UHGV virus genome: UHGV-0305615
Strand: one strand, 5' to 3'
Source of the DNA: a virus
Length of the DNA stretch: 30,965 bases
Positions 9,575 through 30,013 of this stretch are shown piece by piece. A program made the translations under genes and the position numbers. The notes under the pieces were generated by a model, which saw only the letters and a program-made list of their open reading frames with translations, did no database searches and was not told where the DNA came from. Every line of letters starts with the position of its first letter. The first letter of the stretch is position 1.

Positions 9575-9848
9575 CCTGCAACTTGCCGTCAAAGGTGAAT
9601 ACTTCGATGCCATGATTCGCGGAGAGAAAACGGAAGAGTATCGCCTGTGTAATGACTACTGGAATAAGCGAATTATGTTCCGGGAGTATGACCGCCTGAT
9701 TATCACAAAGGGATATCCGAAGCGTGACGATTCCAGCCGCAGAATTGACGTTCCGTATGGCGGCTATGAAATCAAGACAATCACACATCCGCACTTCGGC
9801 GATAAACCGGTAAAGGTGTACGCGATAAAGGTGAATATTGATGGCTAA
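9567..9848 (+). CDS. Hypothetical protein (93 aa), possible ASCH/PUA-like fold
   Basis: GTG 9567 with AAGGGG RBS, overlapping previous stop; fold guess from LAVKGEYFDAMIRGEKTEEYR pattern only. Confidence 0.45.
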   Translation: MANLQLAVKGEYFDAMIRGEKTEEYRLCNDYWNKRIMFREYDRLIITKGYPKRDDSSRRIDVPYGGYEIKTITHPHFGDKPVKVYAIKVNIDG

Positions 9849-10179
9849 ATCAGCAGCAGAGCGCAAAGCCGCTCAGAGAGCCAGACAAGCTGCATCCGGT
9901 GTACGTAAGCTGGAGATTGTGCTGGATGCTCAGGAAATTGAAATGCTGGAGCGTAGCTGTGCCACGCGTCGCCCCGGGCGTGCGCCTTACGAATTTGGTG
10001 AGTATATAGCGTTACTGATCCGCCAGGATGATGCACGCGTGCACGGGCGTATAAAATCGATCAGCAGAAAACGTTGCGGTAAGTGCGGCGAGAGAGTTCC
10101 TGTGAATTCATGCCCGTGTAATGGTGACTCGCAATGCTGGGTGACTAAAGGCTGGCATGAAACGAAATTAATAGTGTGA
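9841..10179 (+). CDS. Hypothetical protein (112 aa): basic N-terminus plus C-terminal zinc ribbon
   Basis: ATG 9841 with AAAGGTGAA RBS; CGKCGERVPVNSCPCNG; stop codon lies inside the 12-bp palindrome. Confidence 0.55.
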   Translation: MAKSAAERKAAQRARQAASGVRKLEIVLDAQEIEMLERSCATRRPGRAPYEFGEYIALLIRQDDARVHGRIKSISRKRCGKCGERVPVNSCPCNGDSQCWVTKGWHETKLIV

Positions 10180-10187
10180 CATGTCAC
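10176..10187. repeat. Perfect 12-bp palindrome GTGACATGTCAC (copy 1 of 3)
   Basis: Exact sequence; identical copies at 12627-12638 and 29977-29988. Confidence 0.6.
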
Positions 10188-10196
10188 GAAGGTGTT

Positions 10197-10409
10197 ATGC
10201 CAAAAATACGCTACGACCTTGAAGATATGAGAGATAACTCAGCAAATTTTCCGAAAGAGGTTAAATTTCTCATGCATAAGTATGGTTGCGCTAGGAGGGA
10301 TATAGTTATCGACAGTCAGCACCCTTGCGGCGAGGATGTAATTTTCATTCGCGGTAAATGGGAAGGGTATCTTGACGAGAGTTTTTACGATGAATTTGAT
10401 GGACTTTGA
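10197..10409 (+). CDS. Hypothetical small protein (70 aa)
   Basis: ATG 10197 within track ORF 10176..10409; GAAGG upstream with short spacing. Confidence 0.4.
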   Translation: MPKIRYDLEDMRDNSANFPKEVKFLMHKYGCARRDIVIDSQHPCGEDVIFIRGKWEGYLDESFYDEFDGL

Positions 10410-10414
10410 ATACT

Positions 10415-10440
10415 GCCGCCAACTATGGCGGCTTTATTTT
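10415..10440 (+). terminator. Rho-independent terminator separating early genes from packaging genes
   Basis: GCCGCC-AACTAT-GGCGGC followed by TTTATTTT. Confidence 0.65.
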
Positions 10441-10451
10441 GCATGGTACTA

Positions 10452-10466
10452 TTACCAAAACGGTAA
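10452..10466. promoter_or_regulatory. Predicted operator (dyad TTACCAAAACGGTAA) upstream of TerS
   Basis: Exact dyad between terminator and TerS start; extra TTACC half-site at 10469-10473. Confidence 0.5.
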
Positions 10467-10483
10467 CTATTACCACGGTGGTT

Positions 10484-11080
10484 ATGATGCCTGCTGAACC
10501 TAAAACCTATAAACGCAAATCAACGCAATTTAAGCCACTAACAGCAATGCAGGAGGCTTATTGCCAGTCATACATCAAAACGCCTGAAAACCAGACTCAG
10601 GCAGCGATTAACGCAGGATTCTCCCCAAATACAGCGGCAGTTAAAGCCAGTGTCATGATGCGCGATGAACGCATTCAAAAACGGATTGCCGAGTTGATGG
10701 AGGAGCGCAACAAACGAATGCGCGTCAGTGCTGATTACGTTCTCATGCGCCTGGTGGAGATCGACCAGATGGACGTGATCGACATCCTCAACGACGATGG
10801 GAGCCTTAAGCCAATCCGCGAGTGGCCGAAAATCTGGCGCACTACGCTTAGTGGCTTTGATCTGTCATCGACCATCATGAACATGAACGAGGATTCGATA
10901 GAGACAATCCTCAAAAAAATTAAATGGCCTGACAAGGTGAAGAACCTCGAACTGATTGGTAAGCACGTCGACGTCAACGCATTCAAAGAACGCCTGGATG
11001 TTAATGTGAATGTGACAATTGCTGATCGCATAGCGGCAGCCAGGAAGAGACTGAAAGAACGTCAGGATGGCAATCAGTGA
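10484..11080 (+). CDS. Terminase small subunit
   Basis: Track ORF 10406..11080 trimmed to ATG 10484 because the 5' part contains the terminator and operator; family guess from sequence character and position before TerL. Confidence 0.65.
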   Translation: MMPAEPKTYKRKSTQFKPLTAMQEAYCQSYIKTPENQTQAAINAGFSPNTAAVKASVMMRDERIQKRIAELMEERNKRMRVSADYVLMRLVEIDQMDVIDILNDDGSLKPIREWPKIWRTTLSGFDLSSTIMNMNEDSIETILKKIKWPDKVKNLELIGKHVDVNAFKERLDVNVNVTIADRIAAARKRLKERQDGNQ

Positions 11081-12552
11081 CAGATACAGCGTTATCTCCT
11101 GAAGAGCAGTTAATCGAGGATATTGCAGGGTTCACTCACGATCCGCTTGGCTATGCCCTCTATGCGTTCCCGTGGGGGGAACAGGGGACTGAACTGGCAC
11201 ATGCCACCGGCCCACGTCAGTGGCAGGCTGATGCGTTCCGAGAGATACGTGATCACCTGCAGAATCCAGAGACGCGCTATCAGCCGCTTATGCTGGCACG
11301 CGCTTCTGGTCACGGTATTGGTAAATCCGCATTCATCTCAATGCTGATCAACTGGGGCATGTCCACTTGCGAGGATTGTAAGGTCGTGGTGACCGCCAAC
11401 ACCGACAACCAGCTACGAACGAAGACCTGGCCGGAAATTATCAAGTGGTCGAACCTTGCTATCACGAAAGACTGGTTTACCTGTACCGCTACCGCGATGT
11501 ACAGCAATGATCCTGGGCACGACAAGCGGTGGCGAGCTGACGCAATCCCCTGGTCTGAGCACAACACTGAGGCATTCGCCGGACTACACAACGAGCGCAA
11601 ACGCATCATCGTGGTATTCGATGAAGCGTCGAACATTGCGGATCTGGTGTGGGAAGTTGCTGAGGGTGCGCTTACGGACGAAGACACTGAGATTATCTGG
11701 GTGGCGTTCGGAAACCCTACACGTAACACCGGGCGTTTCCGCGAATGTTTCCGCAAATATAAACACCGCTGGAAAACTGCGCAGATTGACAGCCGGACGG
11801 TGGAAGGCACTAACAAACAGCAGTTGCAGAAATGGGTCGATGACTACGGGGAAGACAGCGACTTCGTTAAAATCCGTGTGCGCGGCATATTCCCTGATGC
11901 ATCTGAATTGCAGTTTATCCCTACCGGTCTTACTGATGAGGCAATGAAACGGGTGGTAACCGCTGCGCAGGTGGCGCATGCTCCGGTGATAATCGGTGTT
12001 GACCCTGCATATTCAGGCGTTGATGACGCGGTGATATACCTGCGGCAGGGGCTACACAGTAAGGTGCTGTGGACTGGCAACAAGACTACCGACGATCTGA
12101 TTATGGCGAAGCGTATCGCTGACTTTGAAGACCAGTATCAGGCTGACGCGGTGTTCATCGACTTCGGTTACGGTACCGGTCTGAAGTCAATCGGTGATGG
12201 TTGGGGGCGCACATGGCAACTTGTTCCGTTCGGTGGCGCGTCTACTGACCCGCAGATGCTCAACAAGCGTGGGGAGATGTTCAACTCATGCAAGACATGG
12301 CTGAGGCTGGGCGGGATGCTGGATGACCAGGAAACAGCGGACGACCTGTCGGCGGCAGAGTATAAAGTTCGAGTGGACGGTAAAATCGTTATCGAACCGA
12401 AGGAAGATATCAAGGAGCGGCTTGGGCGTTCTCCTGGTAAAGGCGATGCGCTACTGCTGACGTTTGCTTTCCCTGTGTCAAAGCGTCTGCGAATTCCCGG
12501 GCAGCAGAACCAGCAAGGCAAGGCCATCACAGATTACGATCCCTATGCTTAA
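11077..12552 (+). CDS. Terminase large subunit
   Basis: 491 aa; Walker-A-like ARASGHGIGKS; GTG start overlapping TerS stop with AGGATGG RBS. Confidence 0.9.
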   Translation: MTDTALSPEEQLIEDIAGFTHDPLGYALYAFPWGEQGTELAHATGPRQWQADAFREIRDHLQNPETRYQPLMLARASGHGIGKSAFISMLINWGMSTCEDCKVVVTANTDNQLRTKTWPEIIKWSNLAITKDWFTCTATAMYSNDPGHDKRWRADAIPWSEHNTEAFAGLHNERKRIIVVFDEASNIADLVWEVAEGALTDEDTEIIWVAFGNPTRNTGRFRECFRKYKHRWKTAQIDSRTVEGTNKQQLQKWVDDYGEDSDFVKIRVRGIFPDASELQFIPTGLTDEAMKRVVTAAQVAHAPVIIGVDPAYSGVDDAVIYLRQGLHSKVLWTGNKTTDDLIMAKRIADFEDQYQADAVFIDFGYGTGLKSIGDGWGRTWQLVPFGGASTDPQMLNKRGEMFNSCKTWLRLGGMLDDQETADDLSAAEYKVRVDGKIVIEPKEDIKERLGRSPGKGDALLLTFAFPVSKRLRIPGQQNQQGKAITDYDPYA

Positions 12553-12596
12553 TCCGCTAGTGGGGATAATGTCGTTGATATCCTCTGATGAGGATA

Positions 12597-12626
12597 AAAC
12601 AAAGCCAGCTCATCGGCTGGCTGTTT
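12597..12626. terminator. Bidirectional rho-independent terminator between convergent TerL and minus-strand ORF
   Basis: GCCAGC-TCATCG-GCTGGC hairpin (12604-12621) flanked by an A-run upstream and TGTTT downstream. Confidence 0.5.
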
Positions 12627-12638
12627 GTGACATGTCAC
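12627..12638. repeat. Perfect 12-bp palindrome GTGACATGTCAC (copy 2 of 3)
   Basis: Exact sequence. Confidence 0.6.
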
Positions 12639-12642
12639 GGTG

Positions 12643-13017
12643 TTACTTAATGGCATCAAATCCAGCGTTGATGGCTTCCGCAATATTGATGGCGCTTGTT
12701 TTATCGAAGTGCCCATTCTGAATAAGCGCCGCATGCAGGCATTGTAACTTCATGTTGTATAAGTGTTCGCTCATGTAATCATTATCACGTTTTTCCATTT
12801 CAGAATGTTGTGCTGTTATCCAGTCATGGAACGTAACGCTAGTACCATGGTCTTCGCTAAGAGTTAACCCGGCCAGTCCCTCACTCTGAATTACTTCGTA
12901 ATGCATTTCATTACCAGCAAAAACGCCATAAAAAACGCAGTCTTCAGCCTGAACGATACGAGAATATTTTAATGGCCATTCATTTAGATACTTAGCCAAC
13001 ATATCAATTGTTTTCAT
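12643..13017 (-). CDS. Hypothetical protein (124 aa), minus-strand insert between TerL and portal
   Basis: Complete ORF with AAGGTGAG RBS; lower GC than flanks; no recognised domain. Confidence 0.55.
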   Translation of the reverse strand: MKTIDMLAKYLNEWPLKYSRIVQAEDCVFYGVFAGNEMHYEVIQSEGLAGLTLSEDHGTSVTFHDWITAQHSEMEKRDNDYMSEHLYNMKLQCLHAALIQNGHFDKTSAINIAEAINAGFDAIK

Positions 13018-13028
13018 GATCTCACCTT

Positions 13029-13052
13029 AAAAAAATGCCCGGCGACCCGGGC
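13029..13052 (-). terminator. Rho-independent terminator on minus strand between tRNA and the 124-aa ORF
   Basis: GCCCGG-CGAC-CCGGGC hairpin followed on the minus strand by a T-run (A-run 13029-13035 on plus). Confidence 0.5.
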
Positions 13053-13215
13053 GAACTGGAAGCAATGAGTTATGCCTTCCGTGGCTGTACTGGTTTACAG
13101 CATGAAGTCATCGCAATGGCGTCCTGCTGTAAAAAGGGCGGTGATAGTTCTTCAAGGGAAACCATCACCGCCAAGCACCTGGAACTTCTGGCATCACGGT
13201 CCTTAGGCGTGATTC

Positions 13216-13292
13216 TGGCGTGGCATGCAGGATTCGAACCTGCGACCAACCGCTTAGAAGGCGGTTGCTCTGTCCGACTGAGCTAATGCCAC
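13216..13292 (-). tRNA. tRNA-Arg (anticodon UCU)
   Basis: 77-nt minus-strand sequence GTGGCATTAGCTCAGTCGGACAGAGCAACCGCCTTCTAAGCGGTTGGTCGCAGGTTCGAATCCTGCATGCCACGCCA folds as a cloverleaf: 7-bp acceptor stem, GCTC/GAGC D-stem, ACCGC/GCGGT anticodon stem with loop CTTCTAA, GCAGG/CCTGC T-stem with TTCGAAT loop, encoded CCA. Confidence 0.9.
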
Positions 13293-13614
13293 AACGCTGA
13301 GAGCACTTAGCCTGTTAAGGCACCACACTTTGTCGCGGCTCCATAAATGCTCTCATCGTTGTACCCTCGTCTCTTCCGAGGCGTCACACCGAATCGCCGG
13401 GATGGTGAATCCCCGTGCGCGGAATAAAACCGCTCGACTTGCACATTCCGGCTACCTGGTTCGTTTGCCCGAGCAAGGGAGGGTGCCCCTTAAACGTATC
13501 CAGACCGCTATCGTCGCATGTGCCATACGCCGTACTGCTCAAAATAAAAGCTCACTCCACCTGTTCAATTTAACGACAAGCCAGTCAGGTTAGTAACCGG
13601 AATGAACTTTTTGG

Positions 13615-13629
13615 TTACCTGAAAGGTAA
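13615..13629. promoter_or_regulatory. Predicted operator (dyad TTACCTGAAAGGTAA) between tRNA leader and virion genes
   Basis: Exact dyad; a leftward TTGACA -35 (rc of 13646-13651) lies 17 bp away. Confidence 0.5.
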
Positions 13630-13719
13630 TAATTCGTGCGTTAAATGTCAACAGTCTACGATAAATAAATCATATGTGGTTAAATTGGTAATAATTTAAT
13701 TGCGTACGGAGTCATTGAT

Positions 13720-13926
13720 ATGTGCATGGGTAGCTCACCATCAGTGCCTGCAACACCAGAAGTTCAGGCAGCACCACAGGAGCAGGATGCCGCCGTTGTT
13801 GATGCCCGCGACGAAGAAACTCGTCGCCGTCGCGCTGCTGCTGGTCGTAGTTCTACGCTGCTTACCGGTTCTCAGGGCGACACATCAACCGCTAATACCA
13901 GCGGTAAAACGCTACTTGGTCAGTAA
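13720..13926 (+). CDS. Small hypothetical virion-module protein (68 aa), possibly T7 gp6.7-like
   Basis: GGAG RBS; begins MC..., Pro/Ala/acidic then basic; sits just upstream of portal. Homology is a recollection, not verified. Confidence 0.4.
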   Translation: MCMGSSPSVPATPEVQAAPQEQDAAVVDARDEETRRRRAAAGRSSTLLTGSQGDTSTANTSGKTLLGQ

Positions 13927-13940
13927 CCGGAGTCATTGAA

Positions 13941-15620
13941 ATGGCGGAAACAACTAAAGAGCGATTGAACAAACAGTTCGCACAACTTGAAAGCGAGCGT
14001 CAGTCGTTCGAGCCGCACTGGCGCGAGTTGAGTGATTACATCAACCCGCGTGGTTCCCGCTTTCTGACTTCTGAGGTCAACCGTAACGATCGACGCAATA
14101 CACGCATTATTGATTCGACCGGGACTATGGCGGCGCGCACTCTCGCCAGCGGCATGATGTCAGGCATCACAAGCCCCGCGCGTCCGTGGTTTCGCCTGGC
14201 TACGCCAGATCCTGAAATGATGGATTATGGCCCTGTTAAGTTGTGGCTTGAGGCGGTGCAGAACCGCATGAACGATATGTTCAATAAGTCGAATCTCTAT
14301 CAGTCGCTGCCGCAGTTATACGGAAGCCTCGGCACATACAGCACTGGTGCAATGGCAGTGCTGGAGGATGACGAGGACATCATTCGCACAATGCCATTCC
14401 CGATAGGCAGTTACTACCTGGCTAACTCACCTCGTGGCAGTGTGGACACCTGTTTTCGCAAGTTCTCTATGACTGTTCGTCAGCTTGTTCAGGAGTTCGG
14501 GCTAAATAACGTCAGCGAATCCGTAAAAAGCATGTGGGAAAGCGGCACCTACGAGAAGTGGGTTGAAGTGATGCATTCGGTTTACCCGAACATTGACCGC
14601 GATACATCGAAGCTGGATAGCAAGAACAAGCCATTCAAATCGGTTTATTACGAGGTTGGTGGCGATAACGACAAGTTGTTGCGTGAGTCCGGATTCGATG
14701 AGTTTCCAATTATGGCTCCGCGCTGGGAAGTTAACGGCGAAGATGTTTATGGATCATCATGCCCGGGTATGCTGGCGCTTGGACCTGTTAAGGCATTGCA
14801 GCTTCTCCAGAAGCGCAAGTCGCAGTTGATTGATAAAGCCACCAATCCGCCGATGATTGCTCCGACTTCCCTCAAGAATCAGCGTGCCTCCCTTCTTCCT
14901 GGCGACATCACGTATATCGATCAGATTACTGGTCAGGATAGTTTCAGGCCTGCTTATCTGGTTAACCCCAGTACAGCAGATTTGGTGGCAGACATTCAGG
15001 ACACTCGTCAAATCATTAACAGCGCCTACTTTGTCGATCTGTTCATGATGTTGCAGAACATCAATACCCGCTCGATGCCTGTTGAAGCGGTGATCGAAAT
15101 GAAAGAAGAAAAACTTCTGATGTTGGGGCCGGTTCTGGAGCGTCTGAACGACGAATGTCTTAATCCTCTCATTGACCGCGCTTTCTCGATGATGGTGCGT
15201 AAAAACATGCTGCCGCCACCACCTGACGCGATGGAAGGTATGCCCCTGAAGGTCGAATACATTTCCGTCATGGCTCAGGCGCAGAAGTCTATCGGCCTGT
15301 CCAGTCTGGCATCCACGGTCAACTTCATTGGTCAACTTGCGCAAGCGAAACCAGAAGCTCTCGACAAACTCAACGTTGATCAGGCGATCGATGCATTCGC
15401 TGATATGTCCGGAGTGTCTCCAACCGTCATTGTTCCGCAGGAACAGGTTGAGCAGGCTCGCCAGCAACGGGCACAGCAACAACAGCAGCAACAAATGATG
15501 GCGATGGGGATGGCGGCGGCACAGGGTGCCAAGACGCTAAGCGAAGCTAAAACTTCGGATCCGAGTGTTTTGTCAGCTATGGCGAATGCATTTAGTGGTC
15601 AGGGTGGGCAATCACAATGA
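13941..15620 (+). CDS. Portal protein, T7 gp8-like
   Basis: 559 aa; GGAG RBS; Gln-rich C-terminus (QQRAQQQQQQQMMAMGMAAAQ) and overall layout resemble the remembered T7 connector. Confidence 0.8.
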   Translation: MAETTKERLNKQFAQLESERQSFEPHWRELSDYINPRGSRFLTSEVNRNDRRNTRIIDSTGTMAARTLASGMMSGITSPARPWFRLATPDPEMMDYGPVKLWLEAVQNRMNDMFNKSNLYQSLPQLYGSLGTYSTGAMAVLEDDEDIIRTMPFPIGSYYLANSPRGSVDTCFRKFSMTVRQLVQEFGLNNVSESVKSMWESGTYEKWVEVMHSVYPNIDRDTSKLDSKNKPFKSVYYEVGGDNDKLLRESGFDEFPIMAPRWEVNGEDVYGSSCPGMLALGPVKALQLLQKRKSQLIDKATNPPMIAPTSLKNQRASLLPGDITYIDQITGQDSFRPAYLVNPSTADLVADIQDTRQIINSAYFVDLFMMLQNINTRSMPVEAVIEMKEEKLLMLGPVLERLNDECLNPLIDRAFSMMVRKNMLPPPPDAMEGMPLKVEYISVMAQAQKSIGLSSLASTVNFIGQLAQAKPEALDKLNVDQAIDAFADMSGVSPTVIVPQEQVEQARQQRAQQQQQQQMMAMGMAAAQGAKTLSEAKTSDPSVLSAMANAFSGQGGQSQ

Positions 15621-15913
15621 CAGATTACGAAGACGATCAACTGAAAGAAGAAAACGCCCGTAAGCAACGTGACATGGCACAGCGTGAAATTGATGACATT
15701 CGCTTTGTCATGAGCAGTGAACAGGGGCGTCGCGTTGTCTGGTCGGTGCTGGAGAAAGGCCGGGTGTTTTCCGCTATCTCTCCGATGGATGCTATGGCAA
15801 TGGCATTTAATGAGGGGCAACGCAATCTGGCGCTGGAACTGTTTCAGCGCGTTATGGCGCATTGCCCTGAACAGTATTTGAAGATGGCCAAAGAGGCCAG
15901 TGAACAGGAGTGA
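15617..15913 (+). CDS. Hypothetical head-module protein (98 aa)
   Basis: Complete ORF overlapping the portal stop. Confidence 0.55.
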   Translation: MTDYEDDQLKEENARKQRDMAQREIDDIRFVMSSEQGRRVVWSVLEKGRVFSAISPMDAMAMAFNEGQRNLALELFQRVMAHCPEQYLKMAKEASEQE

Positions 15914-22936: not shown

Positions 22937-25683
22937 TGCCAGTTGTACCAACAACATCGGGACGCCAGGTGCAAAGTCGTGGTGTGCAAACCGGTGGTTT
23001 TCAGACCTTCGATGTTCCTCAAGCAGGTCAGGTGCTGGCGAATGTCGCAGATCAGTATGCGGTGGCATATGGTGAAGCCAGGCAGAAAGCGAATGTTGCT
23101 ATGGCCCAGGAGGCGTTACTGCAATTTAACCAATTTGCAGATGACCAGATTAACAACCCTGAAAATGGGCTGATTTCTAAACAGGGTAAAAACGCTCTTG
23201 GTCAGAGTGACGCTGTTATGAAAAATATGCAGGAAAGGGCTCAGGCATTATTAGGCTCAATTCCTGAAAGTGAGGAAAGGAATAAATTATCCTTTCAACT
23301 CCAGAAGTCTATGCAGTCTTATTACAATCAGGCACGTCGATATGAAGTTGGGCAGTTTCAGCAATTCCAAGATCAAACGTATTTGTCAGGAAATGCATTG
23401 GCTGTCACTCAGTCTGCGGGGCTATATAGCGATAACCAAGCATTTGTCGATTTAGCCAAGCAGCGATTTGAATCTATTGATCAATACGCTGATGCGCATG
23501 GGCTTCCTGATGAGTGGCGTGTTCAGCAGAAAACTCAGCTCAAGGAACAAATGGGGCAGCAAGCATGGATAGGAAATATCGCTCAAAAATACAACGAGTT
23601 TCTTCAGGTTAATGGAGAGCCAGGGGATCTTGATGGTGTGAGTCGCGCAATATCACATGGTAATTCATTGGATGCTCGTGGTTTACGTAATAATAACCCT
23701 GGTAATATTGAAGCGAGCAAATCTAACCCGTGGGAAGGTCAGATCGGTAGCGATGGACGTTTTGCAACGTTTGCTACCCCTGAGCATGGAATCCGCGCGT
23801 TGGGTAAAAATATGTTGTCTTACCAGCGTCAAGGCTATGACACCGTTAGCGAGATTGTTAATCGCTATGCTCCGGCTAGTGATGGTAATAATACTGATGC
23901 TTATATTAGGGCATTGTGTGGTGAGCTTGGTGTTGGGGAGAATGATCAGCTTGATATCTCTAACCCAAAGACACTAGCTGCTTTATGTGCTGGGATTATT
24001 AAACACGAAAATGGCAGTATGCCTTATAGCACCGAACAGCTTGAAACTGGTATCTCGGCAGCCCTTGGTCTAACTAACCTTGATTCACCTAAGCGTTATA
24101 CGGGCAATGCGGCATTTGATGCTATGAGCCCTCAAATGCAAATACAGGCATTGAGGCAGGCTAATGAGCTGAGAAATCAGTACCGCCAGCAGTATGCGGA
24201 CCAGCTTAGCACCGTAGTTAAAGATGCATATTCAGCCCTTGATGAAGGATTGAAACCTGAGAAGTTACCTTCTGAGGACGATTTTATCCGGGCCAATGGT
24301 CCGCGCATTGGCGCTATGAAGTGGAAGGATATGCAGGCGCAGATACAATATGGAGGTGTCATTGGTGCCGCTAAAGACCTCACTCCAGAAGGACGACAAG
24401 ACATTCTTGAACGTTTACGTCCACAGGATCCAAACGCTCCTGGATTTGCAGCTAACCAGCAACGCTGGGAGAAAATGCAGGCCAAATTTAAAGAGATGGA
24501 TAGGGAGTGGGAGATTCAGCAGGGAAGAAACAGGTTCGTGTCTTCAATGCAAAATAACTTCCCGCTGGACCCGAACGACAAAAACAATCAGGCAGCGGTA
24601 GACCGCTATTTCGCGCAGGATATCGCGCCTTCGTTTTCCATATCTGATCCGCAGAGCATCAATACACTGGTCACCGTCACAACTAAAAGCGGCATGATAC
24701 CAACTCAGGTTAAAACAATGCTTAACAGTGGAGCAACATCAAGAGATCCTGCGCTGGTTGTCCCGATGGCAAAATTCTACGGTCAGTTATTCGATAATAA
24801 TCCGGCGGCAGCGGCAACACTTGATAAAAGTACGATGGCATTTTACGGCAAGGTTTACGATTATTCCCGCGCTGGCGTGCCGGAGGATAAGGCTGTTGAT
24901 ATGGCTTACAGCCAGGTGTTCCAACAGGATGACCGAATGAAACAGATGCTTTCCACTGCCATGCGAGACAAAAAATATGTCGCGGCGAGGGCAACTGCTG
25001 CACAAAATAACGCCAGCAGTCTGACTTCCTTTGGTTCGTGGTCTCCGGATATTACCGATCCAGGAAAATCAAATGCGGCCTATCAGCGAGATTACCAGAC
25101 AATTTACGATGCTAACTTTGTACAGACAGGTGGCGATGCAGAACAGGCTGAGAAAATGACCAATGCCATGATCAGAACCACCTGGGGAGTTTCTACGGTT
25201 AATGGCAAAGCAGAGGTTATGAAGTATGCACCTGAGGCATTGTACGGAGTAAATAATGGTGCTGGTAACTGGATACAGGGGCAGTGGGAGCAGGAAAAAC
25301 GCGAGCTTAAATCAAAATCCTTTGGCGGTCCTCGCAGTGATACGGACTTAATACTTGTTTCTGATGGCCTTACGGCAAGGGATAGGAGTTATGCTGTTAT
25401 GGTTTTACAGCCTGACGCAAACGGAGCGATAGAACCGAGAAATTATATTGGAGAAAATGGTCTCCCTGTTCGTTTCAAGCCGGATCAGCTGACATCTCCA
25501 ATGTACAGGCAAACCATTCAGTTCCAGCAACAGCGTGTTGATGAGGCTAGAGTGCGGAGAGAAGGCAATCCGCTGCCGCAGTTCAGCAATAAAGATGGAT
25601 ATACTCCTCCAGATCTGACCAAACCATTCGGTTATGGTTCAGCCAATTACCTTCCGAGCAATATATACGCAGGGGGCAAATAA
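22936..25683 (+). CDS. Internal virion (ejection) protein with putative cell-wall hydrolase-like segment, gp15-position
   Basis: 915 aa; AGGAGG RBS; segment GLRNNNPGNIEASKSNPWEGQIGSDGRFATF... looks like a lysozyme-like domain (recollection). Confidence 0.55.
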   Translation: MPVVPTTSGRQVQSRGVQTGGFQTFDVPQAGQVLANVADQYAVAYGEARQKANVAMAQEALLQFNQFADDQINNPENGLISKQGKNALGQSDAVMKNMQERAQALLGSIPESEERNKLSFQLQKSMQSYYNQARRYEVGQFQQFQDQTYLSGNALAVTQSAGLYSDNQAFVDLAKQRFESIDQYADAHGLPDEWRVQQKTQLKEQMGQQAWIGNIAQKYNEFLQVNGEPGDLDGVSRAISHGNSLDARGLRNNNPGNIEASKSNPWEGQIGSDGRFATFATPEHGIRALGKNMLSYQRQGYDTVSEIVNRYAPASDGNNTDAYIRALCGELGVGENDQLDISNPKTLAALCAGIIKHENGSMPYSTEQLETGISAALGLTNLDSPKRYTGNAAFDAMSPQMQIQALRQANELRNQYRQQYADQLSTVVKDAYSALDEGLKPEKLPSEDDFIRANGPRIGAMKWKDMQAQIQYGGVIGAAKDLTPEGRQDILERLRPQDPNAPGFAANQQRWEKMQAKFKEMDREWEIQQGRNRFVSSMQNNFPLDPNDKNNQAAVDRYFAQDIAPSFSISDPQSINTLVTVTTKSGMIPTQVKTMLNSGATSRDPALVVPMAKFYGQLFDNNPAAAATLDKSTMAFYGKVYDYSRAGVPEDKAVDMAYSQVFQQDDRMKQMLSTAMRDKKYVAARATAAQNNASSLTSFGSWSPDITDPGKSNAAYQRDYQTIYDANFVQTGGDAEQAEKMTNAMIRTTWGVSTVNGKAEVMKYAPEALYGVNNGAGNWIQGQWEQEKRELKSKSFGGPRSDTDLILVSDGLTARDRSYAVMVLQPDANGAIEPRNYIGENGLPVRFKPDQLTSPMYRQTIQFQQQRVDEARVRREGNPLPQFSNKDGYTPPDLTKPFGYGSANYLPSNIYAGGK

Positions 25684-28600
25684 TGCCGATATATGAACAG
25701 GATCCTAAAGAGTTGCTTGGCGAGGATATTCAGCAAATAGCAGCACCTGATGACAGTAATTTCTATATGGAAACACCTTCTTTGCTTTCTGCTGTGAACC
25801 CATTTACCAGTGATCAACGCGTTCAAAGGTCTAGACAAGCAGCATTTCGTATAGATAACACGCTGGGTAGCTTTATTGCCAGTGCTCCTTTCAGTCAGTT
25901 TGACAGGGTTGAAGGATATAACCCATTTGATAACGATGCAGCAGATATTAAAGGCTATGAAGATTTTGCAGATTCGTTTATCAACTCCGGTTCGCATGAA
26001 GAAACAATGGCAATTAAACATCGAATCGATAAGCAAAGAACAGATAGAGAATATCTATCTGAAATGGGTGGTGCTGGTACTATTTCAAGCTTAGCAATGG
26101 GAATGATAGACCCGGTTAATGTGGCTGCAATGTTCATCCCTGTAGGGGCGGTAGCGCGTGGAGGAAGTATTGCTGAGACGGCAGGGCGTTTTGCCCTGGC
26201 GAATGCTGCTGGTGGGGGAGTATCAGAAGCCGCATTACAGGCCACTCAGGAAGCTCGCTCACCGATGGAGAGCGTATCGAACGTTGTTGTTGATGCTCTC
26301 GTTGGTGGGATCCTTGGTGCTGGTGCACAGCTACTTGCTGGACCTAGCGCGCGCGAGGCAGTGGTTAACTCAGTAGGTAATCATTTGAGAGGTATGGATT
26401 CTCCTCAAAGCATTGGTGCAGCTCAGGTTTTCAATACCACACTCGATCAGGAACAGCTCGCTGGACTTGGACTTGCTAACAAAACGTTGAGTGTCACTCC
26501 TGCTGGCCGCTTGGCTCAATCACCATCTCTTGTCTCCCGTCAGATTAACCAGCAGCTTGCCGAAAATAACTATTTCTTCGCCAAAAATGATGAGGGGTTG
26601 GCTACGTTTACGGCAGTCGAGACTAAGATTAAGCAATACGACGCCATGCTTTATAAGCAGATGGAAGCCACTCGTGATGCTTACCAGCAGTACAGCAAAT
26701 CTGTTAGCGCCCGCGGCGTGAAGAGGATGAACTTTATTGATTTCAATGAAGCTGTTGGCATGGCTATGCGCCGTGGTGATCAGAGTGATATTCCTGAGGT
26801 TTCACAAGCAGCCGCCAGAATCCGCCCCATTTTTGAGACCACAAAAGCCCGTATGCAGGAACTGGGGATCCTTCCTGAGGATATCGATGTCGTGACGGCG
26901 AAAAGTTATCTTCCCCGCATTTATAAGTTCGATAAGATACTTTCCGACCGCACTGAATTCAGAGGGCGAATTGCCAACTGGATACAAGGGATTAGTGCCA
27001 AAGGTGCTGACAAAGCAGGTCAGCGAATTGAAAGGATAAATTCATTGCTAAAAACTGCAGAGGAATCGGCACCGCGCGCTGATGCTCTCGCTAGTGAAAT
27101 CGCTGAAGCGGAGAAATGGTCTGGTAAAAAAATTCTACTCATGGAAGAACTGGATAAACGAAATAAGCTTATATCTCAGGAGACTGACACACAGGCGCGT
27201 CTTACAAGAATAGAAAAAGAGTTGGCCGAGACTTCATCAGAAAAACTTCAGGCAAGAATGATGAAAGAAAGTTCTGACCTTAAAACACGCCTTGATGATA
27301 TAGCGCAGGCAAAGAGTGAGCTTCCTGTCTATCAGCGCCATATGGAGTTGCTGGATAATCCACGGAAATATCGTTCTGAGCTTCGCCGACTGCAAAAACG
27401 GGCAAATTCAACCACAAGGCTGAATGCAAGCCGCGAACGAGCACTGAAGCAGATGGAGCCTCTATCCCGAGAGGAAGCAGAGGACGCTGCTGACGAGATC
27501 GTGAATAAAATAATAGGCGCACCTTCCGGGCTTGTACCAGCCGATATTATCCCAGAGAGACTCGTTGGTCGGGCTGGTTTCACTAAAAGCAGAACGCTGC
27601 TTATTCCTGATGAGCGTATAGAAGATTTTCTTGAATCAGATGTTAACTACATCATGGAAAGTTATCTCCGGCAGGTGGCACCAGAAATTGAGCTGACTGC
27701 GCAGTTTGGCCGTAAAGATATGGGGGAGCAAATCCGTCAGGTTAGTGAGGAATATACCCGGCTAATAAAAGAGGCTAAAACACCTAAACGACGTGCAGTT
27801 CTTGAGAAGCAACGGGAGGCTGATATTAGGGATATTACGGCTATGCGTGATCGACTGCTTGGTACTTACGGTGCACCTCAAGATCCACGCAGTTTCTTTG
27901 TTCGTGCCGGGCGAGTTGCTAGGAATATTAACTTCCTCCGTTTGCTTGGTGGAATGACTGTCTCCGCTGCAACTGATCTGATGCGACCGATGATGCAGCA
28001 TGGCCTGAGAAAATCTCTCGGACCAATGGTAAGCATGCTTAAAAATATGGACTCAGTGAAAATTGCAACCAGGGATTTGCGAGAAATGGCCGTTGGGCTT
28101 GATTATGTCCTGTCTACGCGTACAAAGGCTATAGCGGATCTTACTGACCCCTATAGCCGGAGAAGCGCCGCTGAGCGAGGTCTGAACTGGATGACGCAGA
28201 AATTCGGTAACTGGACGCTGATGAATCAGTGGAACAGCGCACTTAAATCATGGTCCGGGATTATAGTGCAGTCGAGGATACTTGACGCGGCTCGCCAAGT
28301 TTCTGCTGGTGGCACGCTCTCCAAAAGTGAAATGCGGAAGATGGCACAGGTCGGCATCAATGAAGATGTTCTGCGCCGAATCGGGGAGCAATTCGGGAAG
28401 CACGGAGAGGATATGGACGGGCTGTTAACCGGGCATAGTCATCTGTGGGATGACCGTTTCGCTAGAGAGATTTTCCAGTCTGCAGTGCTGAAAGATGTAG
28501 ACTCAGTGATTGTAACGCCTGGCGTAGGTGATACACCGCTGTTTTTTAGTAAAGAAGGCTGGAAGATGATCACGCAGTTCAAAACGTTTATCTTCGCACA

Positions 28601-29072
28601 GCATAACAGGGTGCTAGTATCTGGTATCCAGCAGGGCGATGCTGCATTCTATCTTGGTGCGCTTGGCACGATTGCGCTTGGCTCAATGGTCTATATGATG
28701 AAACAGAAGTTAAGCGGTCGCGATATCGACTACAGCTGGAATAACCTTGTGAAAGAGGGGATCGACCGGGGCGGAATGCTTGGCTGGCTCTCTGAGCCGC
28801 TGAATACCGTTGAGAACATAAGCGGCGGTAGGTTTGGTCTTGGCGCGATGTTTGGTGCGCCTCCGGTATCAAGGTTTCAGAGTCGTAATGCTATTGGTGC
28901 TTTACTTGGTCCTACCTTTGATCTTGGCGGTGATGCCGCGACGGTTGCGAATGGTGTACTTAACGGAGAATTTGACAGCCAGCAAACCCACGCGGTCCGT
29001 AAAATGCTACCTTTTCAGAACCTGTGGGCGATATCACCGTTACTAAATAAAGTTGAAGAGCAGATGAAATAG
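25683..29072 (+). CDS. Large internal virion / ejection protein, gp16-position
   Basis: 1129 aa; TAATG overlap with previous gene; call from size and position. Confidence 0.55.
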   Translation: MPIYEQDPKELLGEDIQQIAAPDDSNFYMETPSLLSAVNPFTSDQRVQRSRQAAFRIDNTLGSFIASAPFSQFDRVEGYNPFDNDAADIKGYEDFADSFINSGSHEETMAIKHRIDKQRTDREYLSEMGGAGTISSLAMGMIDPVNVAAMFIPVGAVARGGSIAETAGRFALANAAGGGVSEAALQATQEARSPMESVSNVVVDALVGGILGAGAQLLAGPSAREAVVNSVGNHLRGMDSPQSIGAAQVFNTTLDQEQLAGLGLANKTLSVTPAGRLAQSPSLVSRQINQQLAENNYFFAKNDEGLATFTAVETKIKQYDAMLYKQMEATRDAYQQYSKSVSARGVKRMNFIDFNEAVGMAMRRGDQSDIPEVSQAAARIRPIFETTKARMQELGILPEDIDVVTAKSYLPRIYKFDKILSDRTEFRGRIANWIQGISAKGADKAGQRIERINSLLKTAEESAPRADALASEIAEAEKWSGKKILLMEELDKRNKLISQETDTQARLTRIEKELAETSSEKLQARMMKESSDLKTRLDDIAQAKSELPVYQRHMELLDNPRKYRSELRRLQKRANSTTRLNASRERALKQMEPLSREEAEDAADEIVNKIIGAPSGLVPADIIPERLVGRAGFTKSRTLLIPDERIEDFLESDVNYIMESYLRQVAPEIELTAQFGRKDMGEQIRQVSEEYTRLIKEAKTPKRRAVLEKQREADIRDITAMRDRLLGTYGAPQDPRSFFVRAGRVARNINFLRLLGGMTVSAATDLMRPMMQHGLRKSLGPMVSMLKNMDSVKIATRDLREMAVGLDYVLSTRTKAIADLTDPYSRRSAAERGLNWMTQKFGNWTLMNQWNSALKSWSGIIVQSRILDAARQVSAGGTLSKSEMRKMAQVGINEDVLRRIGEQFGKHGEDMDGLLTGHSHLWDDRFAREIFQSAVLKDVDSVIVTPGVGDTPLFFSKEGWKMITQFKTFIFAQHNRVLVSGIQQGDAAFYLGALGTIALGSMVYMMKQKLSGRDIDYSWNNLVKEGIDRGGMLGWLSEPLNTVENISGGRFGLGAMFGAPPVSRFQSRNAIGALLGPTFDLGGDAATVANGVLNGEFDSQQTHAVRKMLPFQNLWAISPLLNKVEEQMK

Positions 29073-29513
29073 CTATTCACAATTAGTGATGGCGTATGTA
29101 TCAAATATATTGCCATCACTAAATACATACCTATACTCAATCTCTCCGCCAAGGTGAATAAATGCTTTCATTTGCCTGTTGGAGCAAATGCTCGATTTTG
29201 AATAATTTCGCATTACACTCTTTAATTTATTTTCTAAGGTTACATCACCATTATAAACTTTTGATAAATAGCTGTTGTTGTAATTAAGATGCGCTACAAC
29301 TAAAAGTTTGTTTAGTATTGCATTTATTGAAACAATAGACATATTATCATTCAATTTTATGGGAAGTGACTTTCCTGCTTCTGATGCAATTTTGTTTGCA
29401 TGTGCACACATATCCTCATTTATTAAATTCTTAAAACATATGTCGTTTGCAAACGAAAAAATTGGTAGGATAAACAAAACGGTAGCTGTAATAGCGTGCA
29501 TCGGCTTAATCAT
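29073..29513 (-). CDS. Hypothetical secreted protein (146 aa) with N-terminal signal peptide, AT-rich cargo gene
   Basis: MIKPMHAITATVLFILPIFSFA then NDICF...; 4 Cys; coding DNA roughly one-third GC versus ~50% in flanks. Confidence 0.55.
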   Translation of the reverse strand: MIKPMHAITATVLFILPIFSFANDICFKNLINEDMCAHANKIASEAGKSLPIKLNDNMSIVSINAILNKLLVVAHLNYNNSYLSKVYNGDVTLENKLKSVMRNYSKSSICSNRQMKAFIHLGGEIEYRYVFSDGNIFDTYAITNCE

Positions 29514-29525
29514 TAGGTGACCTTT

Positions 29526-29975
29526 ATGTTCAAGAAGATGATCAACAGATTAATCGGTGGTAAGGAGGTTAGCAATAAAATTCAACCTCTTATCTTTAAG
29601 GATAACTTTTCAGCTTTTGAGTATGCGTGTAAGTATCTTGACACAAGCCTTTCAGCCAATAAACCAATGCCAGCCATCATCATACCTGGTCCCAGTGGGG
29701 AACAGCCAGTTTTGCTAGATTCTGGAAGACAAAGGGCAATGCTGAAGGTGTGCTCAGCTGATGGTGGATTTTTTGTTATTGCCGATTCATCTTACAGCAA
29801 AGGACCAAAGCTGAGGATTGGTGATCTTGTTGCTTGGTTGCCTGTGAGTTATGCCGAAGAATTAACGGATAAAATAGAAGATCCTCGCTCCGCTATGGTT
29901 GGCTTTATATTGGGAACCATTCATCCTGAACTAACATCTACTGGCTGGAAGGGTAAAGAAAGATTTCGCAAGTAG
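29526..29975 (+). CDS. Hypothetical cytoplasmic protein (149 aa), AT-rich cargo gene
   Basis: ATG 29526 with AGGTGA RBS (track start 29517 is GTG); divergent from the secreted-protein gene with only ~12 bp between starts. Confidence 0.5.
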   Translation: MFKKMINRLIGGKEVSNKIQPLIFKDNFSAFEYACKYLDTSLSANKPMPAIIIPGPSGEQPVLLDSGRQRAMLKVCSADGGFFVIADSSYSKGPKLRIGDLVAWLPVSYAEELTDKIEDPRSAMVGFILGTIHPELTSTGWKGKERFRK

Positions 29976-29976
29976 C

Positions 29977-29988
29977 GTGACATGTCAC
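29977..29988. repeat. Perfect 12-bp palindrome GTGACATGTCAC (copy 3 of 3)
   Basis: Exact sequence, 1 nt after the TAG of the 149-aa gene. Confidence 0.6.
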
Positions 29989-30013
29989 AGGCCGCTTTCG
30001 CGGCCTTGTTTTT
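29989..30013 (+). terminator. Rho-independent terminator
   Basis: AGGCCGC-TTTC-GCGGCCT hairpin followed by TTGTTTTT. Confidence 0.6.

Follow-up and report, generated by a model that had tools for sequence, protein, structure and literature searches.

Our results suggest that the 12-bp palindrome GTGACATGTCAC, found in the junction behind the terminase large subunit (TerL) gene, is on balance probably the recognition site of the phage's own gp46/gp49-like protein, which would gate transcription across operon ends. What the sequences show directly is that the site is conserved, that it goes with the gene for this protein, that its half-sites are strictly spaced, and where it stands with respect to stop codons and terminators. 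Moreover, comparison of related sequences indicates that the terminator and the palindrome of this junction are the fixed left border of a slot for exchanged small accessory genes.

The window, by which we mean the whole stretch of 30,965 nt that was analysed, is an epsilon15/phiV10-like prophage according to sequence comparison. Its region 10000-15700 shows 97-98% identity to the E. coli phages HEMP4, PAS61, ZX5 and phiV10, and 78-82% identity to the Salmonella phages epsilon15 and SPN1S, the Enterobacter phage Tyrion and Klebsiella relatives, all of which belong to the genus Uetakevirus. Between TerL and the gp3 and portal genes (13720, 13941) lie the minus-strand ORF124 and a minus-strand tRNA-Arg (TCT). 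The features discussed below are listed in Table 1. Note that near the left end of the window, on the minus strand, positions 632-721 match the Rfam family sRNA-Xcc1 (RF02221), with 64.8 bits against a gathering score of 53.

Table 1. Positions of the genes, terminators, palindrome copies and conserved or variable blocks in the window
Feature	Position	Strand	Basis or remark
N15 gp46/epsilon15 gp49-like protein gene (112 aa)	9841..10179	+	TGA stop inside copy 1; candidate binding protein
Palindrome copy 1	10176..10187		Overlaps TGA of 9841-10179; 2 nt before ORF70 ribosome-binding site
ORF70, variable accessory ORF in copy-1 slot	10197..10409	+	phrog_1541
Plus-strand terminator, closes early-right operon before TerS	10415..10432	+	Sequence
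TerL gene	11077..12552	+	Stop TAA 12550-12552; ORF list; ~98% identity to annotated phiV10 and PAS61 terminase large subunit
Hairpin-1 spacer	12543-12591		Variable in relatives (block mapping)
Hairpin 1, ATCCTC-TGAT-GAGGAT	12580-12595		Sequence
Terminator + palindrome island	12592-12645		Constant in relatives (block mapping)
Intrinsic terminator of minus-strand accessory gene	12593..12622	-	Stem 12603-12609/12616-12622, loop 12610-12615, U-tract from plus-strand A-run
GC stem-loop AGCCAGC-TCATCG-GCTGGCT	12603-12622	-	A-run precedes, GTTTGTG follows
Palindrome copy 2, GTGACATGTCAC, perfect	12627-12638		Between ORF124 stop codon (12643-12645) and its terminator
ORF124, swappable accessory gene (124 aa)	12643..13017	-	phrog_4846, function unassigned
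ORF body	12646-13016		Variable in relatives (block mapping)
Ribosome-binding site + upstream minus-strand terminator island	13012-13166		Constant in relatives (block mapping)
Slot's right edge: terminator 13052..13037, U-run running into accessory ORF's ribosome-binding site	13022..13052	-	Terminator scan
Minus-strand terminator downstream of tRNA	13137..13172	-	Terminator scan
tRNA segment	about 13167-13497		Variable in relatives (block mapping)
tRNA-Arg (TCT), independently variable insert	13216..13292	-	Absent from epsilon15, Tyrion, L119, L074, L048
One-mismatch copy GTGACATGGCAC	15669..15680		Inside coding region
Palindrome copy 3	29977..29988		1 nt past ORF152 stop codon; abuts plus-strand terminator directly
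Plus-strand terminator, late structural operon end	29989..30006	+	Terminator evidence

The preliminary description of this junction had placed a short hairpin, a GC stem-loop and the palindrome after TerL, and a check of the sequence recovered all three where they had been put. The palindrome is indeed close to the TerL stop: its end lies 86 nt past that stop and 4 nt short of the stop codon of ORF124. The junction (108-121 nt) folds better than shuffled sequences, with z = -6.0 for the plus strand and -3.3 for the minus strand. The short hairpin (hairpin 1) belongs to a 49-nt segment that is missing from epsilon15 and from locus L119, and is retained only in E. coli relatives of 97-99% identity; by our own arithmetic, dozens of 6-bp stems like this one are expected by chance in 31 kb. 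Being specific to the E. coli lineage and at chance level, hairpin 1 was ruled out as a functional element and is probably incidental.

Intrinsic terminators were called where a GC-rich stem with a loop of 3-8 nt is followed directly by a U-tract on the transcribed strand. By this test the GC stem-loop is a minus-strand terminator, with a 7-bp stem containing 5 GC pairs, a 6-nt loop and the tail TTGTTTTATC. Its stem is 96% paired in 19 relatives, which include one compensated change from C-G to A-U. The stem-loop had been described as a bidirectional terminator, and this part of the description did not hold, because a consensus scan of 11000-15000 called no plus-strand terminator and the homologous stem-loops of epsilon15 and SPN1S have no plus-strand T-run behind them. 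The plus-strand tail, GTTTGTGA in the window, reads GAATGTGA or GGTTGTGA in SPN1S and epsilon15, and the A-run, which gives the minus-strand U-tract, is retained there. Since the call is confined to the minus strand and the A-run is kept without the plus-strand T-run, the stem-loop is the terminator of the accessory gene. Nor is the junction insulated on both sides, as had been proposed: the scan of 11000-15000 called four terminator-like sites, every one of them on the minus strand. In the absence of any plus-strand call, plus-strand transcription from TerL to the portal gene would meet no stop by the criteria of the scan.

The accessory genes that this terminator serves are exchanged with great precision. 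Homology between phiV10 and the window covers 12400-12645 and begins again at 13017, so that what is swapped is the ORF124 body and nothing else. Block mapping divides the region into three segments that vary independently of one another, with two constant islands between them (Table 1). Relatives fill the slot with at least seven unrelated minus-strand ORFs; the stop codon is always 4 nt away from the palindrome and the start codon always at the same conserved ribosome-binding site, the exchange running from stop codon to start codon. In Tyrion the same slot holds a homologue of ORF124, a protein that had no match in Pfam, NCBIfam, PADLOC or the PDB sequences. The island at the right edge, comprising the ribosome-binding site and a terminator, is conserved in about 25 relatives carrying different ORFs. 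The slot locus is present in 516 of 5426 complete E. coli genomes (about 1 in 10), but only 114 of these 516 carriers cover at least 80% of the query containing ORF124. Most of the partial matches listed have a 'Gp49 family protein' (phiV10 p03 / Sf6 gp66 type) in place of ORF124; despite its name, this protein is unrelated to epsilon15 gp49.

The preliminary description had seen an insertion boundary here and had proposed a comparison with relatives that lack the insert. The junction is the left edge of the variable region, as that reading implied, but it is itself part of the backbone. In L119 the slot is near-empty, with no tRNA and a mere 8-codon remnant ORF, yet both islands, including the terminator and the palindrome, are present. 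Since the relatives, L119 included, keep the terminator and the palindrome while the ORF is swapped, the junction is backbone and is not carried by the insert.

A slot of this kind could still mean that the palindrome is a recombination boundary or an insertion scar, that is, a conserved junction for cassette recombination to which no protein binds. Although all three copies of the palindrome adjoin variable genes in the epsilon15-like phages, and the copy-1 and copy-2 slots share a mini-ORF (MxDEFDGF), the site is retained in the empty slot of L119 and stays invariant while its flanks drift. The exchange of ORFs is exact to the stop and start codons; the break in homology, however, falls at the ORF stop codon, 4 nt off and outside the palindrome. 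Moreover, in unrelated phages the site occurs inside conserved genes, with no insertion nearby, and at the stop of the regulator gene without an adjoining cassette. The palindrome is therefore not a by-product of insertion, and we consider cassette recombination without a binding protein an improbable explanation. Integron cassettes resemble the slot in that ORFs are exchanged precisely beside a palindromic element at the ORF 3' end, but there is no integron integrase here and the phage element also stands in non-cassette contexts. In addition, the attC architecture (R''/L''...L'/R', GTTRRRY core, 57-141 bp) does not fit a 12-bp element without a core site; inspection of the palindrome flanks found GTTACTT and GTTATTG, and no GTTRRRY core.

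How the accessory ORF is expressed is suggested by its upstream side, where a strong minus-strand terminator (GCCCGGGTCGCCGGGC followed by a U-run) ends 11 nt short of the ribosome-binding site; a look for promoter-like sites upstream of ORF124 on the minus strand found none. With a terminator abutting the ribosome-binding site and no promoter found, expression seems to depend on read-through of the terminator or on RNA processing. According to the concept reportedly due to Hendrix and Juhala, morons are accessory genes of lambdoid phages with their own terminator, inserted between backbone genes. ORF124 is like them in being a small opposite-strand ORF between terminase and portal, flanked by terminators and variable among relatives. 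It is unlike them in that, of the own promoter and own terminator that define a moron, just the terminator was found, and in that the exchange is ORF-precise and occurs in a conserved slot.

Palindrome copies 1 and 2 are accompanied in several genera (L005, L045, L119, L067, L134, L135 and L003) by a mini-ORF of 8 codons (M-x-DEFDGF-stop), which follows copy 1 and, on the minus strand, precedes copy 2. Relatives of the PAS61 type lack ORF70 and have the mini-ORF MHDEFDGF in its place. Moreover, ORF70 of the window ends in ...YDEFDGL (10386-10409) and the slot ORF of epsilon15 in MKDEFDRF. By their sequences, the copy-1 and copy-2 slots look like paralogous modules.

In the window the exact 12-mer is present at 10176, 12627 and 29977, and the flanks of these three copies have nothing in common beyond the 12 bases. 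It also sits at the same three junctions, where the last early-right gene stops, after TerL and where the late structural operon ends, in epsilon15, phiV10, PAS61, SPN1S and Tyrion; BUCT711 has copy 3 at the same position. Copy 2 is also invariant at the junction in many metagenomic and genomic relatives, and the 12-mer is unchanged where the sequence of the adjacent terminator drifts. It has been lost from this junction, with no obvious harm, in L009, L049, L106 and BUCT711. Short palindromes and hairpins are common, and the count of two-mismatch copies in the window is not significant. We nonetheless give next to no credence to an ordinary terminator with an accidental palindrome alongside: a single exact 12-mer appeared in just 6 of 2000 shuffled windows, against the three copies of the real one, and the conservation of its position across genera already refutes chance. 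The one-mismatch copy GTGACATGGCAC has the identical mismatch in phiV10 and PAS61, is missing in epsilon15 and is probably not a site.

The GenBank records of epsilon15 and phiV10 annotate terminators and repressor, IHF and RNase III sites, and the palindrome is not among their features. The 12-mer and six variants of its central dinucleotide had no mention in a phage context in the literature searched, and the paper on phage ZX5 has nothing on the palindrome.

Other elements were seen around copies 1 and 3. Between the early-right terminator, which it follows directly, and the probable true start of TerS at ~10484, the operator-like repeat tattaccaaaacggtaactattacc (10447-10480) agrees with the 'repressor' binding sites annotated in the epsilon15 record; the operator-like attaccaaaacggtaa was seen at about 10452-10467. 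In Klebsiella-type and some other relatives, TTGACT occurs within ~10 nt after copy 1 (L008 near 431; L010, L028, L039, L131 and L137), and a LexA-box-like TACTGTTTAAATATACAGTA lies ~17 nt beyond it, which suggests that these relatives have an SOS-controlled promoter just past copy 1. Before copy 3, the end of the late region (25683-29975) is unlike that of phiV10 and comprises a 1129-aa ORF, a minus-strand 146-aa ORF and a 152-aa ORF; the ORFs of this stretch have no assigned function (phrog_8772 and phrog_9944), and the same gene arrangement was found in the IMG/VR locus L083.

Apart from conservation, the evidence for the proposed binding protein takes the form of co-occurrence, the site being linked to one gene. 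The product of 9841-10179 belongs to phrog_536 ('transcriptional regulator') and is a homologue of epsilon15 gp49, phiV10 p55 and N15 gp46. Scanning viral contigs with a 14-mer containing the site gave at least 120 loci; among the 120 listed, 46 have a homologue of this protein within a few kb and 89 the homologue or other epsilon15-like proteins. Wherever the homologue was seen in these loci (45-98% identity, many downstream contexts), the site is at -1 to +9 nt from its last codon. The unbiased test started from the protein instead and gave 58 genomic loci from about 50 species. In 39 of the 57 loci analysed, GTGAC-NN-GTCAC occurs between -15 and +60 nt relative to the gene's 3' end, the chance expectation being ~0.02 copies per 20 kb. 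The site is missing from the gene end in the remaining 18, most of which have copies elsewhere in 20 kb; four homologue loci have no site within 20 kb.

The linkage extends to phages of very different kinds. The myovirus ZF40 (homologue of 64% identity) has 3 exact copies, of which one lies 3 nt past the gene, and the siphovirus N15, a linear plasmid prophage (35%), has 3 copies of GTGACTGGTCAC, one of them over the gp46 stop. There are also 3 copies in Vibrio phage K308, unclassified in its record (31%), and 1 copy, over the stop, in the P2-like Yersinia phage vB_YenM_56.17 (42%). Nearly all carriers of the site are phages of Enterobacterales, Vibrio and Aeromonas. A homologue with a site at the stop codon was also seen in a Pseudomonas lundensis contig (L180) and an Advenella MAG (L165), non-enteric labels that reflect either horizontal spread or contamination. 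A packaging (pac) site was ruled out, because in ZF40 and N15 the sites are far from the terminase genes.

In addition to the end of the regulator gene, the site has recurrent positions. In 46 distinct sequences, oriented by the U-tract, the order is gene stop, a few nt, site, terminator hairpin and U-run. Site and hairpin are separated by no more than a few nt, except in two of the sequences, where the gap reaches about 13 nt; at least four unrelated hairpins are represented. In the window, copy 2 has this order on the minus strand and copy 3 on the plus strand. Some copies precede a ribosome-binding site or a start codon by 2-20 nt. Others are inside genes, including those of key regulators: the site is over codons 2-5 (MRDMSQ) of a Q antiterminator gene (PF06530, E = 4e-38; L161 256, L015, L020 and L127), in the 3' part of YdaT-family genes (PF06254, 'bacterial toxin YdaT') in ZF40, L163, L170 and L179, where the RefSeq label of the proteins is 'CII-like transcriptional activator', and in the gene of a 105-aa early protein, where it is always read as xDMSx.

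The spacing of the two half-sites is strict. Counts of GTGAC-Nx-GTCAC for x = 0 to 8 were 0, 0, 25, 1, 0, 0, 0, 0 and 0 in nine phage genomes, and 2, 1, 80, 2, 1, 1, 2, 1 and 0 in the 1.08 Mb of the protein-first loci, so the enrichment is limited to the 2-nt spacing (25 and 80 copies against 0-2 at the other spacings). Among all pentamers in the form X-N2-rc(X), GTGAC ranks first. The central dinucleotide is variable: AT is commonest, and AC/GT, CT/AG, GC (in a Yersinia clade) and TG (in N15) also occur. In contrast to this freedom at the centre, mismatches in one arm are at about chance level, and compensatory changes of both arms numbered 13 against about 20 expected. This lack of a halo of arm variants fits base-specific recognition of both half-sites.

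It also bears on whether the element acts as RNA, as a transcribed hairpin GUGA-CNNG-UCAC that is bound by the same phage protein or acts alone, and that modulates the adjacent terminator, occludes the next ribosome-binding site or start codon, or stabilises the 3' end of the transcript. Every copy is transcribed and lies at a stop codon, a ribosome-binding site or a terminator foot, some being over Q codons 2-5 or 2-20 nt before a start codon, and the protein combines an N-terminal helix rich in arginine with a zinc knuckle, all of which would suit an RNA target. However, the 4-bp stem alone is marginal, and an element defined by its stem should tolerate compensatory changes, whereas here the arms never vary and such changes do not exceed chance. 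Perfect two-fold symmetry around a central dinucleotide that is free to vary is what one usually sees where a dimer sits on duplex DNA, and the structural neighbours of the protein are DNA-binding ribbon-helix-helix proteins. For these reasons a dimer on duplex DNA is the more likely arrangement and an RNA hairpin the less likely one, and we regard the RNA element as an unlikely alternative.

The half-sites raise a different question. The E. coli matS site is GTGACRNYGTCAC (PMC6907758), and MatP binds it through a ribbon-helix-helix (PMC12756933). Since the half-sites are identical and the spacer is 1 bp shorter, the phage site is matS minus its central base. With 12 bp and a 2-nt spacer it is not itself a matS (13 bp, GTGAC-RNY-GTCAC), and the 3-nt spacing of matS is at background in both data sets (1 vs 25 and 2 vs 80). 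The motif could thus be a host-factor site, bound by MatP or another host protein and used by the phage to tether or organise its DNA. Nearly all of its carriers infect Enterobacterales, Vibrio and Aeromonas, which are taxa that have MatP, and K308 has a true 13-bp matS-type site as well. Against this stand the strict 2-nt spacing (25:1 and 80:2 relative to that of matS), the tie of the motif to the 3' end of one phage gene, and the loss of 1 bp, which would rotate the half-sites by ~36 degrees and normally abolish dimer binding. We therefore hold a host-factor site to be very doubtful. Note that the 13-mer of K308 (L190, 19491-19503), which follows the matS consensus, is GTGACACCGTCAC and stands besides three 12-bp sites. 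A CRP site was ruled out by inspection, the spacing of the half-sites being wrong.

The candidate binding protein belongs to a family of more than 700 clusters at 90% identity, spread over phages of Enterobacterales, Vibrio and Aeromonas. Searches of Pfam, NCBIfam, PADLOC and the PDB sequences returned nothing for it, and 'GP46 protein' was the sole informative name. Its N-terminus is basic (ERKAAQRARQ), its core is strand-helix-helix-like, and four of its cysteines are invariant (CxxC, C, C). An AlphaFold2 model built from 113 sequences (mean pLDDT 82) has a helix at 5-18, an extended segment at 19-29, helices at 30-43 and 52-74 and a C-terminal knuckle. The structural neighbours of this model are DNA-binding ribbon-helix-helix proteins, with low scores; Foldseek searches of PDB and BFVD with the model gave nothing useful, and hhalign found no similarity between the family and a MatP sequence. 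In view of the low scores and of these two null results, the assignment to the ribbon-helix-helix superfamily, whose strand-helix-helix unit dimerises through the strand, is tentative, and the predicted core is probably a ribbon-helix-helix.

Small phage and plasmid repressors of the ribbon-helix-helix type with palindromic operators, such as Arc, Mnt, CopG and the ParD-type antitoxins, resemble the gp46/gp49-like protein, which is likewise small and has a predicted strand-helix-helix core and a short symmetric site, one copy of which is beside its own gene. Unlike their operators, the sites described here stand not at promoters but at the gene's 3' end, at terminator feet and in coding regions, and the gp46/gp49-like protein has an additional zinc-binding C-terminus. 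With MatP/matS the phage system shares the pentamer half-sites GTGAC/GTCAC, the palindromic form and a small number of sites dispersed over the replicon. It differs in that its sites are at gene boundaries and terminators of a 39-kb phage, whereas matS belongs to a chromosomal macrodomain, and in that the phage protein has a Cys4 zinc knuckle and neither four-helix bundle nor coiled coil. By its architecture (four-helix bundle, ribbon-helix-helix and C-terminal coiled coil) and by sequence similarity, the protein thus falls outside the MatP family.

We infer that the gp46/gp49-like protein binds the site, that DNA and not RNA is its target, and what the effect of binding would be, from the sequences and their arrangement. 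At the TerL junction, the minus-strand terminator would keep accessory-gene transcripts from continuing in antisense direction into the terminase gene. A dimer of the protein would bind the two GTGAC half-sites of GTGACATGTCAC in the DNA duplex. From such a position, at the foot of a terminator on its upstream side or on top of a stop codon or ribosome-binding site, it could then act as a gate on transcription across operon ends, with a gating or roadblock role there. Note that the contexts of the site are heterogeneous (terminator foot, ribosome-binding site, inside genes), and that no single downstream mechanism would follow from them.

A bolder version, which we regard as speculative and unlikely, is that the gp46/gp49-like proteins are a phage-borne, MatP-like family of ribbon-helix-helix proteins with a 12-bp 'phage matS', gating module boundaries or bridging DNA. 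The few sites per genome would then be those at operon ends, at terminator feet, at the Q start codon and in the YdaT-family ('CII-like') genes, and the protein might interact with the host MatP, MukBEF or ZapB system. If true, this 'phage matS' would be an unrecognised layer of developmental control common to podo-, myo- and siphoviruses of enteric bacteria and vibrios.

Small phage regulators that have palindromic sites are already known in kind. Compared with the records and the searchable literature, what is new is an invariant, strictly spaced site across very different phages, its location at stop codons and terminator feet instead of promoters, half-sites that match matS, and a protein family that is unannotated. 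The 12-bp site is tied to a family without Pfam model, solved structure or described function, and so provides an experimental handle on it, and also on how late operons are kept apart from opposite-strand accessory genes in these phages. That the half-sites are identical with those of matS raises the question of cross-talk, or of prophage sites mis-annotated as matS. Finally, the terminator-and-site island and the ribosome-binding-site-and-terminator island together delimit a natural slot into which a common temperate phage takes cargo with ORF precision.
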